DNA of 64,000 bases from Eledone cirrhosa (lineage: Eukaryota): positions 98,022,001 to 98,086,000 of the forward strand of contig OZ024746.1 of NCBI GenBank assembly GCA_964016885.1, given 5' to 3'. The notes below the pieces were generated by a model, which had not been told where the DNA came from, did no database searches, and saw nothing but the letters and a program-made list of their open reading frames with translations. Position numbers and translations under genes: made by a program. Below, piece by piece: positions 38,901-53,738 of the stretch. Every line of letters begins with the position of its first letter. Positions within the stretch are counted from its first letter, which is position 1.

Positions 38901-39093
38901 GGAAAAGAAATCGAAAATGCAACTGGAGTCTTTTAAAGAATATTTATTTATTTCCTTTACCGGTTTCACAGTTCTTATGCTTTTCAAAAGCATTTCAATT
39001 TTACTTTTGAAAAGCAAAAGAACTTTGAAACCGGTAAAGGAAATAAATAAATATTGTTTAAAAGACTCCAGTTGCATTTTCGATTCCTTTTCC
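38901..39093. mobile_element. Palindromic module with two U3-A8 variant hammerheads (38954-38990 minus, 39004-39040 plus)
   Basis: Near-perfect 190-bp palindrome between (TA)n tracts; ctt TTGAAAA gcataagaactgt GAAA ccgg TA aag. Confidence 0.7.
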
Positions 39094-39283
39094 TTATACT
39101 TTCACTCGTAATTTTCTATTATATATATATATATATATATATATATATATATATATATATATATATATATATATATATACACACACACACATATATATTG
39201 TGAATTGCGACTCCCAAGGGAACGGGCGAAGGATTCAAGAACACCCGCTTTGTCCGTTCCCTTGTCGATTTAATTTGGATTAC

Positions 39284-39480
39284 CTCGGGAACGTAACCTT
39301 ATTATGTAAGAAGCTGTCTGATGATGTCACGGCACTGGGTACACGGAATTGTGTGGCCACTGTCGTCATTGAAATATGCATCCGAGCGCAGGTTGCAGCG
39401 AAGAAGAATCCAAGGGTTTCGTTTCCTCCGGGGAAGATTTGTATCGCGCTCCCACATAGCTCTAATCTTGTCACTGACTA
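39284..39480 (-). other. Candidate unique (host) exon or regulatory island
   Basis: Non-repetitive, CpG-containing segment; the minus-strand frame ..MHISMTTVATQFRVPSAVTSSDSFLHNKVTFP ends at AG|GTAATC (donor-like). No domain recognised. Confidence 0.25.
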
Positions 39481-39674
39481 ACTGTGTGCGCTCTGATTTA
39501 CCAACTTGGATCTCAGAAATGAAGATTCGGTAAAATCATTAAGCGAGTGGAAAATTCAGTGGGCTAGCACAAATTCAATTTGTCAAATTCGTTATAATTG
39601 CATGCCAACACAAGAGCGAGAATGGCATGGCTTATAAAAGAGAGCGTTTGCATAATTGCAAACGAATCGAATAT

Positions 39675-39862
39675 TGGATTGGCAGTATTGGTAGAGAGTC
39701 GAATGCCATGCTTTGACGCATAGAGTTACGGCCCTTTCCATTCTGGGTTTAAATCTCGCCAAGGTTAACTTTGCCTTTCATCCTTACGGGGTCGATAAAA
39801 TAAAGTACCAGTAATACACTGGGTATTTGCTGGCCTTGTGCCAAAAGTAGAAACAATTATTA
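39675..39862 (+). mobile_element. Meta/MESC-core tRNA SINE
   Basis: Matches the family consensus. Confidence 0.85.
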
Positions 39863-49116: not shown

Positions 49117-50427
49117 ATGCCAACAAAAACGGATACAACCCTCATCAACTCAAATGAAGAGATCCTACAGGAACTCAAGAAAATCAACACCAACCTATCT
49201 TTGCTGGTCGACAAACTTGACTCCACAAATAAGGAAACCGCCACCGGATACAAACCCTCCGAAATCGGCGACAAACTCCAAAACCTTTGCGATACTATCC
49301 AAACTATGTTCACTACTACCAACCCAGGAAAAACCAACGAAGAACCATGTGAGATTGATTCACACAAAATGAAAATTCGAACAATTCCAAAATGGAACAA
49401 ATCCCTCAGAGACAGAAAGTTCTCATTCTGGAAGATGATACAAAATCACAACAAAGCAGAGATATATGAAAAATGGCTTAACTCAACCCCTCTAACTCTC
49501 CCCCATAAACTACAAATAAAGTCCATTCCAAATGAACCCGAACTTCAAAGACACCTTAGGGAAAGAATGGCATTGGAAAAAATGAAGACAGAAATTGAAC
49601 TTCTTAAACTGAGGGCCCAGACAAATGAGGAAAAAATCAAAACCATCGATGAAGAGATCCTCCTGGAAATCAACAACAAAACTGAAGGCCCCAAGGTAGA
49701 GAAGATCTCCAAATTATGGAAAGGGGACTGCAACAGAGAAGAACTGAAATCCCTTCAACGCTGGGAAAAAATTGCCGCTTGGTTCCTACACTATGAATCG
49801 ACTTTTCAAACGGATTACACCTCCAATAACCCGTTCATAAAAATAGGAAAACCCATAACTGAACCGCACAACAACTTCTCAAACCCCCAAGCCTCTAACA
49901 AACGAAGAAAGAAGCACCACACCGAAGATGAACTTCCCAACCTCGCTACCATAAGAAGGAACAAAAACCCAAGAAATCATCTCCCCCAGAATGACATTTA
50001 CAACTTCCCCCCTTCAAGGAGACACCATACCAAATCACTCAACTAGTATGCGGATGCCTCATCGTCAAACATAGGGAAAAGATACCACCGCCATGATAGA
50101 TGTAACAACTTCCCCGCTTCAAGGGGACAGCAAGGTAATTACCATTTTCTCAACTCTCGCTTCCACAATACACAACAAACCCACACCACACGATACAACC
50201 AACAACGTAGGCCACTTATAACACCACAATACAACATGGCACATAGAAACACACACCCATACTCGCAGTACAGGAACACCCCATTCAATCTACAACCACC
50301 GACCCGAACCATATTTTACAACAACAAGGAATATAACAAACACAGGAGACCACTTTACATCAGCAGACAACCCCTCTACTCCAACCATTTTTTAGACACA
50401 GCACACAGATACAGGCAAACAAAATAA
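49117..50427 (+). CDS. PLE ORF1: coiled-coil-rich protein with low-complexity N/H/R/Y-rich C-terminus; one in-frame TAG at 50044-50046
   Basis: ORFs 49063-50046 and 50236-50427 share one frame with no other stop; heptad-like EEILQELKKINTNLSLLVDKL and RERMALEKMKTEIELLKLRAQTNEEKIKTIDEEI. Confidence 0.65.
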
Positions 50428-52713
50428 CACAAGACAGGGAGGAGAAACCGATAGTAATAAAAATTATCAATCTTACTAGTGCAGAACCAACACCCAACCT
50501 TATCAACTTACTCTCCAAAGGTCTTAAATTCACACCGACCACACTACGTCCTAACTACTATGAAATGAAGGAAGACATCACAGACTTCTGTAGAAAGTTA
50601 CGACTTAGTGAACAACTATTCGACCAGTACAATGAGGATGAATCATTAGCCAGAATAGAAGCAATTACACCCCTTCAAAAGGTAGAAATAAAATCCTGGA
50701 CGAATTCTGTGAACACATCACAAACTTCCCTTACCAACACTTGCACAGACAAAAATACAAGCCAAACCTCAACAGGAAAGAATGGGAAGAATTAAATAGA
50801 TTAAAAACCGACAGAACCATTACAATTAAAGAGGCTGATAAAGGGAGTACAGTAGTCCTAATGGAGACAGAATTCTATATCAACTTAGCGCTCTCCACTT
50901 TGGAAAACGAAACATACTACGAAAAGGCTGAACACTACAATCAACAGAAAATTATGAGAAACCTAAAAACTCTAATCAACCAATACAAAGAAGGACTCAC
51001 TAACAAGGAATTCAGCTTCATCACAGACTTCACAAGTAAATCCAGCCTTTTCTACGGTATCCCTAAAGTACATAAAAGCGAATCAATAAGTAAGGCATGC
51101 AAGGAAGCCACAGACATAGTCATCAATGTCCCCTCACCCAATGATCTCAAATTAAGACCTATAATAGCAGGCCCCGCTTGCGAAACGCACCGTCTTAGCA
51201 ACTTCATTGATACCCTTCTCAAACCCTTCCTCAAGCACATCAAAAGCTATATAAGGGACGACCTAGATATGCTCAATCACCTCCCTAATATGCCACTTTC
51301 TGAACAAACCCTACTAGTGACGTTCGATGTAGTCAACCTATACTCCAACATCCCCCACAACCTAGGAATAGAAGCTATCCAATTCTGGCTGGATAATTTC
51401 CACAATGAACTCCCACAACGCATCAAAAAAGAATTCGTGATAGAGGGACTCAAATTTATCTTGGAGAACAATTACTTCGTTTTCATTAACAAACCCTACA
51501 GGCAGAAATCTGGGACCGCTATGGGAACTAAAACAGCCCCCACTTATGCCAACCTAGTCATGGGATACCTGGAAATCACCCTCTACACTAAAGTCCTAAA
51601 CAAATTTGGAAACACCCTCCACTTACACATTGAAAGGAACTGGAAGCGATATCTAGATGACTGCTTCATCCTTTGGCACGAAAACATCGAAAAACTTAAA
51701 GAATTTCACACCCTTATAAATGGGCTCAACACAAATATTAACTTCACGATGGAATACAGCCATCAACAACTCCCCTTCCTCGACATCCTCATTAAGATCC
51801 ATAACAAAAAAAATAGAAACAGACATATACTACAAGCCCACAGACTCCAAGCAATATCTCCCCTTCAACTCTTGCCACCCTAGACACGTTAAAATTAATA
51901 TTCCCTACAACTTAGCCAAGAGAATCTGTACTATAGTCTCCAATAAAAACATCTGCTACTTACGGCTACAAGAACTAAAGGACACACTCATAGGCAGGGA
52001 CTACCCTGCATCACTAATTGACAATGGAATCCAACGTGCCCTAAAACTCAGTACACAGGACCTTAGACACCCTAAAGTAAATCAAGCAAAACTAAAAGCT
52101 CTTCCATACATCTCCACACACAACCCCCTCAACAATGAGGCCTTTGACACCATCCTCCAGAACATCCCTGTATTGAAAAAGGACCATAGAATGAACCAAA
52201 TTCTACGAACACACGATATCATAAAGAGCAAAAGACAATCCAAGTCAATGAAAAACATCTTAACACATGCCAAAGTACTGCCAACCACAACAACGAAACC
52301 CACAGTAAAAAAAATGCGATAGACCCAACTGTGGCATTTGCATCAACCTAATAGAGGGTTCGGAATTCTATTTCAAAGATGGACAACGTTTTATAGTAAA
52401 ACACAATTTCACATGTGCATCGGAAAATCTAATATATGTATTAACTTGTTCAGGTTGTCGAGAACAATACATAGGCCAGACCAAAAACAGCCTCCGCCGA
52501 CGCATGACTGTCCATAGATCCCAAATCAAAATACGGGAATACAGGAAAATACCACTGAGTGAACACATTGATACCTGTGCCGCCCAAAATCATCCTAACT
52601 TCAGAATCTTTCCCCTCTACAAATTTAAAGATAATGCCACCCACACCCAGCGCATCAGCAAGGAATCTTACTTCATTAACAAATACGGACCCCGTCTAAA
52701 CACTTCTCCCTAA
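50388..52713 (+). CDS. PLE pol: reverse transcriptase and GIY-YIG endonuclease (three single-base frameshifts)
   Basis: IINLT..LLSKGLKFTPT..FCRKLRL; IKEADKG; FYGIPKVHK; LRPIIAGP; TFDVVNLYSNIP; GTAMGTKTAPTYANL; RYLDD; LPFLD; YYKPTD..SCHP; CDRPNCGIC; NLIYVLTCSGCREQYIGQT..RMTVH..SEH..KESYFI..LN. Shifts at ~50655, ~51810 (A-run) and ~52310 (A-run). Confidence 0.92.
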
Positions 52714-53700
52714 GATGAACCCACAACATACACACGTCAACATACATACCTACATCAGCACACATCTCTACCCACATATAAACACAATGACATACGTAAA
52801 CACACATGCTCTATGGTGCAACACAAAAAAATATATGTGCATATATATATGTATATATGTGTATGAATGTATATATATGTATATATATATATATATATAT
52901 ATATATATATAGTGAATATATGTATGTGTATATATATATAGTGAATATCATTTCACACATTTTATTGTTAAGATTTTTGATGTTCTATTAAGAGAACCGA
53001 TTTTACTGAAAAAATCGAATAATGTACACCATTTTACCAGGGGGAAAAAATACTGGTCCCCCCCCCCACACACATATATATATATATATACACACACACA
53101 TACACACGCGTACATCAACATACAAAGAGACTTATATATACACACACACACACACACACACACGCACTTCTCCGTATAAGACAAAAGCTGAAAAATATCT
53201 TTTGACATGCTAAATTGCTTTCAGACACATTCTTACTGACCATCCCTGCCACCACGAATTACTCTGCTATAGACACACACACACACACACACACACACAC
53301 ACACACACACACACACACACACACACACACACACACACACACTTATCTTAATAGCCATTTGACACACATCGCTGCTAACCATTATCACAACATCGAACAC
53401 CTTACTACTACTACACACACACACACACATACACACACACACACACACACACACACACACACACACACACACACACACACACACACACATATTTGTTGTG
53501 AAAGAGTCATTTCTCAATCTTGGCGCAAAACTAATTTTTTATTCACATGACCTCTACCGACCAATCAAAATTGTTTTGACCACAAGAATTTTTGCAACAC
53601 CAAAGTAACGCTGGAGCCACTTTTTTAACATAAAAACAGGTAGAATTCCCAAAACTAATCAGATCAGAGCAAACAGCACGAACACTCTATCTCAAAATTA

Positions 53701-53738
53701 TTTTTGAAAAGCATTTAGAAATGCGCAACCGGTAAAAA
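53701..53738 (+). ncRNA. Variant hammerhead-like motif in the PLE pLTR (mirror copy at 47691-47728, minus)
   Basis: ttt TTGAAAA gcattt-ag-aaatgc GCAA ccgg TA aaa: U3-A8 covariation, A13C change and palindromic stem III. Confidence 0.55.

Follow-up and report, generated by a model that had tools for sequence, protein, structure and literature searches.

A hammerhead lineage with cytosine at position 13

Position 13 of the catalytic core is treated as invariant in hammerhead searches. In a 64,000-nucleotide window of the Eledone cirrhosa genome (assembly GCA_964016885.1, contig OZ024746.1, forward-strand positions 98,022,001 to 98,086,000; coordinates below are those of the window), Penelope-like elements (PLEs) carry type-I minimal hammerhead motifs with a U3-A8 core, and in one PLE family, referred to here as the C13 lineage, adenosine 13 is replaced by cytosine. 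Judged by pairwise comparison of the families, C13 is a derived state of single origin, fixed through three subfamilies. The new part is this A13C change, fixed in an abundant and recently active lineage. Its novelty is provisional: no natural A13C hammerhead was found in the literature searched, and the alignments of Lunse et al. lie outside that search. The available portions of PMC6765202, PMC6257768, PMC11875169, PMC8495972, PMC2553840, PMC13282606 and bioRxiv 10.64898/2026.07.22.740005 contain nothing on position 13.

A descriptor scan and a direct pattern search of the window recovered seven U3-A8 motifs, all at the places given by an earlier analysis of the letters alone (the sequence-only reading), with 0.01 expected by chance per window for the relaxed pattern (100 Markov resamples). 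The type-I minimal topology assigned by that reading was right, with exact core spacing, a palindromic stem III and an NUH triplet. The GAAA sequence (G12-A13-A14-A15.1) is present in three motifs and absent from the four GCAA motifs, which are therefore filed as a variant and not as consensus members. In the copy at 53701-53737, U3 is 53704, G12 is 53725, C13 is 53726 and the predicted cut falls after A17 (53734). Self-comparison of the window established that the motifs, which had been counted as seven separate examples, belong to four insertions of two PLE families. Two of these are short inverted pairs, at 38896-39098 and 41543-41938, and one is a stub near 41362; the long element at ~47530-53865 carries a second, inverted copy of its 3' region at its 5' end and is the third inverted pair. 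The arms of an inverted pair were taken as one event because genomic examples of other pairs carry one rare mutation in both arms.

The U3-A8 motifs form several families across the genome

In the 3.0-Gb genome, searched for motifs with CCGG stem III palindromes, the exact U3-A8 pattern occurs in 29,613 copies, compared to 3 in the reversed control; 12,130 of these copies are of the GCAA form (control, 0). A further 3,678 matches, against 87 in the control, have U, C or G at N7, and most of them make up two more families, F4 and F5, which differ in stem II. The three GAAA motifs of the window belong to a fourth family, F1. Its reverse transcriptase (RT)-thumb region is 59% identical to that of the C13 family, and the GAAA motifs thus come from a separate PLE family; the GCAA pair at 41.5-41.9 kb is not derived from the 47.5-53.9 kb element but belongs to an older subfamily. 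F4 (UUGAUAA, GAAA) is nearer to the C13 family (RT/thumb 71-74% identical) than to F1 (56-58%).

The core reads UUGANAA in all U3-A8 families, with N7 varying between them. Stem III is ACCGGU followed by A, the triplet is GUA or GUU, and the palindrome is broken in the copy with its core at 41786. Stem I has 3 bp in the C13 family, 3-4 bp in F1 and 2 bp in F4 and F5, and its pairs change between families. Stem II is paired at pairs 1-4 in 92-99% of C13 and F1 copies, with G10.1-C11.1 present. The sequence-only reading that stem II mostly stays paired thus holds at the level of the families and fails for the motifs with cores at 39007 and 41365, in which this stem is damaged; the stem of 6 bp that it gave for the motifs at 53704 and 47725 is realistically one of 5 bp with a 4-nt loop.

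Single representatives of the C13, F1 and F4 families are 81-90% identical over the motif, and their 100-nt flanks are only 50-66% identical, compared to 47-56% for shuffled sequence. Pairing was followed in 249 distinct parsed copies, 27 of them unassigned to families; because the sampling patterns prescribed parts of the core, core frequencies in these samples are not unbiased. The family-majority pairs change on both sides at stem II pair 4 (T-A versus G-C) and at stem I pairs 3 (T-A versus C-G) and 2 (T-A versus A-T), and F5 differs from the other families on both sides at stem II pairs 2-3. The covariation of stems that had been suggested as a check is therefore seen, between families, in stems I and II. 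When two copies were folded together, stem II was kept and an ACCGGU duplex formed in 6/7 family representatives, the exception being the C3-G8 family F6. Because the motif is conserved relative to its flanks and the stems covary between families, we regard it as a conserved RNA structure with hammerhead spacing rather than a chance look-alike; on this evidence, the motifs are true homologues of the PLE minimal hammerhead. Separately, a small family (loci L372-L391) has a canonical CUGAUGA core, a CCGG stem III and a GUC triplet, with stem I apparently offset by two unpaired bases before C3.

The U3-A8 core belongs to a published class

The sequence-only reading took U3-A8 to be rare. However, U3-A8 PLE hammerheads, UUGAAAA included, have been described with ~1,300 matches in Schistosoma (Cervera and De la Pena 2014, PMC4209133), the supplement of that paper shows UUGAAAAA in a PLE, and U3-A8 is the norm in the four families analysed here. 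Natural U3-A8 covariation was also reported, in active form, by Perreault et al. (2011, PMC3088659). The three GAAA motifs are thus ordinary members of a published variant class, and the U3-A8 finding adds only another host. No hammerhead in cephalopods was found in the literature searched.

The motifs share with the U3-A8 hammerheads of the Schistosoma mansoni Cercyon PLEs their type-I form, pseudo-long terminal repeat (pseudo-LTR) location, short stem I, palindromic stem III, G10.1-C11.1 pair and occurrence as solo and inverted copies, as well as the cores UUGAAAA(A) and UUGAUAA(A) of the published alignment (PMC4209133). They differ in several respects. The rows of that alignment are all GAAA (one AGAAA) and none has C13, whereas four window motifs are GCAA. 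The extra unpaired base between 9 and 10.1, present as U in F4, is absent in the C13 family and F1, as it is in some published rows. Finally, the stem III palindrome of the C13 family and F1 is the 4-nt CCGG, and their copies run to tens of thousands. The core variants of Perreault et al. share U3-A8 with the motifs described here; those listed in the available text are U3-A8, A6C, A6a, a U13a insertion, U15.1-A16.1 and U10.1-U11.1, and that text describes no substitution at position 13 (PMC3088659).

C13 arose once and persisted through three subfamilies

The claim that A13C is fixed in a young PLE lineage was borne out: among 145 flank-anchored copies, 135 have C at position 13, 2 have T and 1 has A, and 7 could not be parsed. 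C13 is considered derived because A13 is found in F4, the nearer relative, as well as in F1, the more distant one, as ordered by pairwise identities and not by a tree. Three C13 subfamilies were distinguished, with divergences from their column majorities of 12%, 9.6% and 3.5% from the oldest to the youngest (26, 23 and 40 of 79 aligned copies; 17 unclassified copies left out). Between the oldest and the youngest, 0/25 core and stem columns differ, compared to 24/182 flank columns (P=0.03). The two changes within the motif among the subfamilies lie in loop II, and stem II is kept or extended. Otherwise perfect copies with a base other than C at position 13 number only 112, with T (53), A (30) and G (17) in decreasing order among the 100 listed (by eye); therefore, no revertant subfamily has spread. 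Position 17 is A in all 102 parsed copies of the lineage.

When the genome was searched for C13 families of separate origin that have a CCGG stem III, only look-alikes that fail in the stems emerged. A TTGAGAA...GCAACCGGTT repeat, considered as a second C13 family, is ~215 nt long, is bounded by inverted repeats and pairs poorly in stems I and II; CTGAGGA and CTGAAGA matches with GCAA have variable flanks and no stem I and resemble decayed coding DNA (by eye); and a three-copy TTGAGAA repeat has no stems. Other registers of GCGCAACCGGUA, with the C as an insertion or TGCGCA as stem III, were rejected because A15.1-U16.1 is lost. In a metagenome scan, no stem I of at least 2 bp was present among 22 listed of 70 matches. 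The ~215-nt repeat, which lies beside TTAA (L410:3896-4112 and relatives; near 57900 in the window) and contains a hammerhead-like string, is probably a miniature inverted-repeat transposable element of DNA-transposon type, presumably piggyBac-like.

Most insertions were copied through an intact motif

Cutting of the template RNA would be expected to yield copies that begin at the cut site. Among 100 listed of the 155 C13 copies holding the start of the open reading frames (ORFs), the upstream motif is retained in 69, and 5 start, by alignment, at -2 to +5 of the cut site, compared to 1.0-1.7 expected from neighbouring rates (Poisson P 0.003-0.03, for an interval set after looking and at a site with a short tandem repeat). 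In F1, 56/83 such copies (of 184) keep the motif and 0/83 clearly begin at the cut site, one being ambiguous; the difference between the two families (5/100 versus 0/83) gives a Fisher P of 0.06. With anchoring on the downstream flank, the motif is retained in 90 of 100 listed C13 copies (of 12,635), and no copy starts within -2 to +5 (47 sequences read, 53 placed by position on exact motif matches). Most insertions were therefore copied through an intact motif, and most templates were uncut or re-ligated.

This situation resembles that of the Poseidon PLE of Anolis carolinensis (Frangieh et al. 2024, PMC11167929), in which the hammerhead also lies upstream of an internal start of reverse transcription, targets are AT-rich and uncut RNA is the main template. 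According to the available text, cleavage by the anole hammerhead depends on its protein, and insertion in vitro can proceed without cleavage. In contrast to the C13 lineage, known from sequence alone, the anole element belongs to the Poseidon clade, has a canonical C3-G8 core with A13, and its protein-assisted activity was measured.

A proposed weakened ribozyme tolerated by transposition

We lean towards the view that the C13 motif is a slow hammerhead whose cleavage after GUA would depend on dimer formation or on the element's protein, and that transposition tolerates this weakness. Two motif copies would pair through ACCGGU and build stem III, as in the published dimer model; the RNA would be cut after GUA in this dimer or with help from the protein; and the base at C13 would face A17 and might partly replace the usual A13-C17 contact. 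Cutting would be rare and most template RNA would stay whole, in which case a 10-100-fold loss at position 13 would cost the element little. Losses of this size have been reported for A13 mutants, compared to more than 100-fold for G5, G12 and A14 mutants (Olsthoorn 2014, PMC4075628), and PLE hammerheads show low activity even as dimers (Cervera and De la Pena 2014, PMC4209133). Small hammerhead variants near PLEs described by Lunse, Weinberg and Breaker (RNA Biol 14:1499, as reported in PMC6765202) likewise have a reduced palindromic stem III and cleave as dimers.

Several observations weigh against this proposal. Stem I of the C13 lineage consists of only 3 A-U pairs, and the best monomer fold of the youngest copy sequesters the core. 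The 5' ends near the cut site hint at cutting weakly at most, and not consistently. Constraint after the origin of C13 comes down to one borderline P value, the other two subfamily comparisons giving P=0.33 and 0.06. Hammerheads elsewhere in nature avoid C13: among the viral matches listed, 0/120 with C13 fold as complete hammerheads, compared to 65/131 with A13. In the available data on another hammerhead, scanned pairwise, no change other than the C3G/G8C swap rescued the CUGA region (PMC9901934), so that U3-A8 may already be weak and A13C on top of it could kill activity. Finally, the association of C13 with A17 counts as one event only, as C13 arose once.

Some of these points would fit a C13 form that is catalytically dead and was carried along by a successful source element, cutting being dispensable, with the motif persisting as a relic or as a protein-binding or promoter-linked structure. 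We regard this as possible but rather unlikely. Two core changes combined with the short A-U stem I, the lack of folded viral counterparts and the read-through of most copies are all in its favour, as are the spread of Naiad PLEs without hammerheads (PMC8557442) and the lack of cleavage in 8/9 Xenopus retrozyme dimers (bioRxiv 10.64898/2026.07.22.740005; both as given in the available text). A dead motif would, however, sit poorly with the lack of any other drift in core and stems through three subfamilies, with the confinement of the two motif changes to loop II while stem II was kept or extended, and with the weak surplus of C13-lineage copies that start at the cut site.

It is more doubtful that the lineage is active with two swapped contacts, C3-G8 to U3-A8 and A13-C17 to C13-A17, which would make it the first natural covariation of positions 13 and 17. 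A full compensatory flip, in which C13-A17 replaces A13-C17 and activity equals or exceeds that of the A13-A17 sister forms, appears improbable. C17 does pair with A13 in the full-length structure (PMC7092961, available text), A17 is invariant in the parsed copies and no reversion sweep has occurred, the spectrum of the non-C copies looking neutral; but the lineage offers one evolutionary event only, A17 hammerheads are common in the viral matches listed without any C13 form among them, and the apparent second C13 families are not hammerheads. That the motif is a conserved promoter or protein site in DNA or RNA that resembles a hammerhead without homology is very unlikely: no hammerhead family is among the best 150 of 351 Rfam matches and the folds of single copies are no better than those of shuffled sequences (z from -1.7 to +0.9, 5/5 folded), but exact core spacing, free N7 and loop II, the NUH triplet (GUA/GUU), the palindromic stem III, covariation across four families and publication of the same motif in PLEs (Cervera and De la Pena 2014) all oppose it.

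With ~12,000 copies transposing through three waves, the C13 lineage is a natural test of whether PLE hammerheads must cut for mobility. Should C13 RNA cut, the core consensus and the view of the 13-17 contact would have to be revised and search descriptors relaxed; a dead C13 form would be direct evidence that PLEs can do without hammerhead catalysis. Were both contacts swapped in an active form, a ribozyme of ~12,000 copies would have been invisible to CUGANGA/GAAA searches.

The host elements and other features of the window

As the sequence-only reading had placed them, the motifs sit in the pseudo-LTRs of elements with RT and GIY-YIG domains in the C13, F1 and F4 families; near F5 copies (3-kb loci), no ORF was seen beyond one weak match. 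The order ORF1, RT and GIY-YIG with a linker, as encoded at 49117-52713, is the layout of Neptune and Nematis PLEs, and the Neptune type is recognised by a C-terminal GIY-YIG after a CX2-5CxxC linker and by (TA)n targets (PMC8557442, available text). In the C13 family, C-X4-C-X2-C precedes the GIY-YIG match and copies end in (TA)n, the linker being common to Nematis. RT and GIY-YIG homologues of the window PLE are 40-60% identical, and those of its RT that carry names come from bivalves and bivalve-associated assemblies (42-47%), which, like the richness of the DNA in microsatellites, would fit a molluscan and perhaps cephalopod host. The description of a young autonomous PLE fits the family, whose near-intact copies are 97-99% identical, but not the window copy, which is broken by a stop at 50044 and by frameshifts. 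Its 5' pseudo-LTR remnant lacks the motif because it starts ~11 nt past the predicted cut site. Features are listed in Table 1.

Table 1. U3-A8 motifs and PLE features in the 64-kb window.
Feature	Position	Strand	Basis or detail
Inverted-repeat stub, family F1	38896..39098	.	Arms 91%; self-comparison
A13 (GAAA) motif, F1, left arm of inverted pair	38955..38990	-	Core-to-cut 38987-38958
A13 motif, F1, right arm; stem II damaged	39004..39040	+	Core-to-cut 39007-39036
A13 motif in short F1 stub; stem II damaged	41362..41395	+	Core-to-cut 41365-41391
Inverted-repeat stub, oldest C13 subfamily	41543..41938	.	Arms 95%; self-comparison
C13 motif, oldest subfamily, left arm of inverted pair	41664..41700	-	Core-to-cut 41697-41667
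C13 motif, right arm paired with 41664..41700; CTGG in place of the stem III palindrome	41783..41818	+	Core-to-cut 41786-41815
Inverted, rearranged copy of element 3' region (matches 52580-53914)	47530..48911	-	Self-BLAST, 88-94% identity
C13 motif, inverted 5' copy, same insertion as 53701..53737	47692..47728	-	Core-to-cut 47725-47695
5' pseudo-LTR remnant	48930..49079	+	Start ~11 nt after predicted cut site
PLE ORF1; 436 amino acids in unbroken copies; stop at 50044 here	49117..50424	+	Translation
PLE ORF2, RT and thumb; frameshifted in window copy	50337..52322	+	PF00078, E=4.8e-7
GIY-YIG endonuclease with C-X4-C-X2-C linker, Neptune/Nematis type	52309..52713	+	PF01541, E=1.7e-7
3' untranslated region and 3' pseudo-LTR, terminal (TA)n tract	52714..53865	+	
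C13 motif, 3' pseudo-LTR, youngest subfamily	53701..53737	+	Core-to-cut 53704-53734; subfamily divergence 3.5%

A U-UUU-UUA heptamer (50388-50394, + strand) lies where ORF1 and ORF2 overlap, ORF2 being in the -1 frame; the six Ts of the heptamer are present in 21/21 C13-family copies, and the same motif occurs in F1. It is likely a programmed -1 frameshift site, as noted for some PLEs (PMC8557442, available text), and no stable fold was predicted downstream of it in the C13 family. Many F1 stubs share a near-identical start ~45 nt upstream of the core (by eye), which may mark the start of transcription in the pseudo-LTR. Several C13 inverted pairs have an equal spacing of 111 nt (e.g., G000:C1 21363531/21363642, 25261290/25261401 and 36625822/36625933), which suggests either that fold-back favours one point or that the inverted unit is non-autonomous.

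The window holds seven more motifs, with canonical CUGANGA cores, in other repeat families (612-656, 17075-17129, 20556-20605, 29712-29766, 29914-29972, 35760-35809 and 41186-41234); stem I is 6-8 bp long and stem III is a 6-nt palindrome or near-palindrome (TATATA, TGCGCA, TGTATA, TATGTA). ORF fragments of other non-LTR retrotransposons, with RT and restriction-like endonuclease motifs recognised by eye, lie at 5455-6590, 10710-11231 and 32008-34773.

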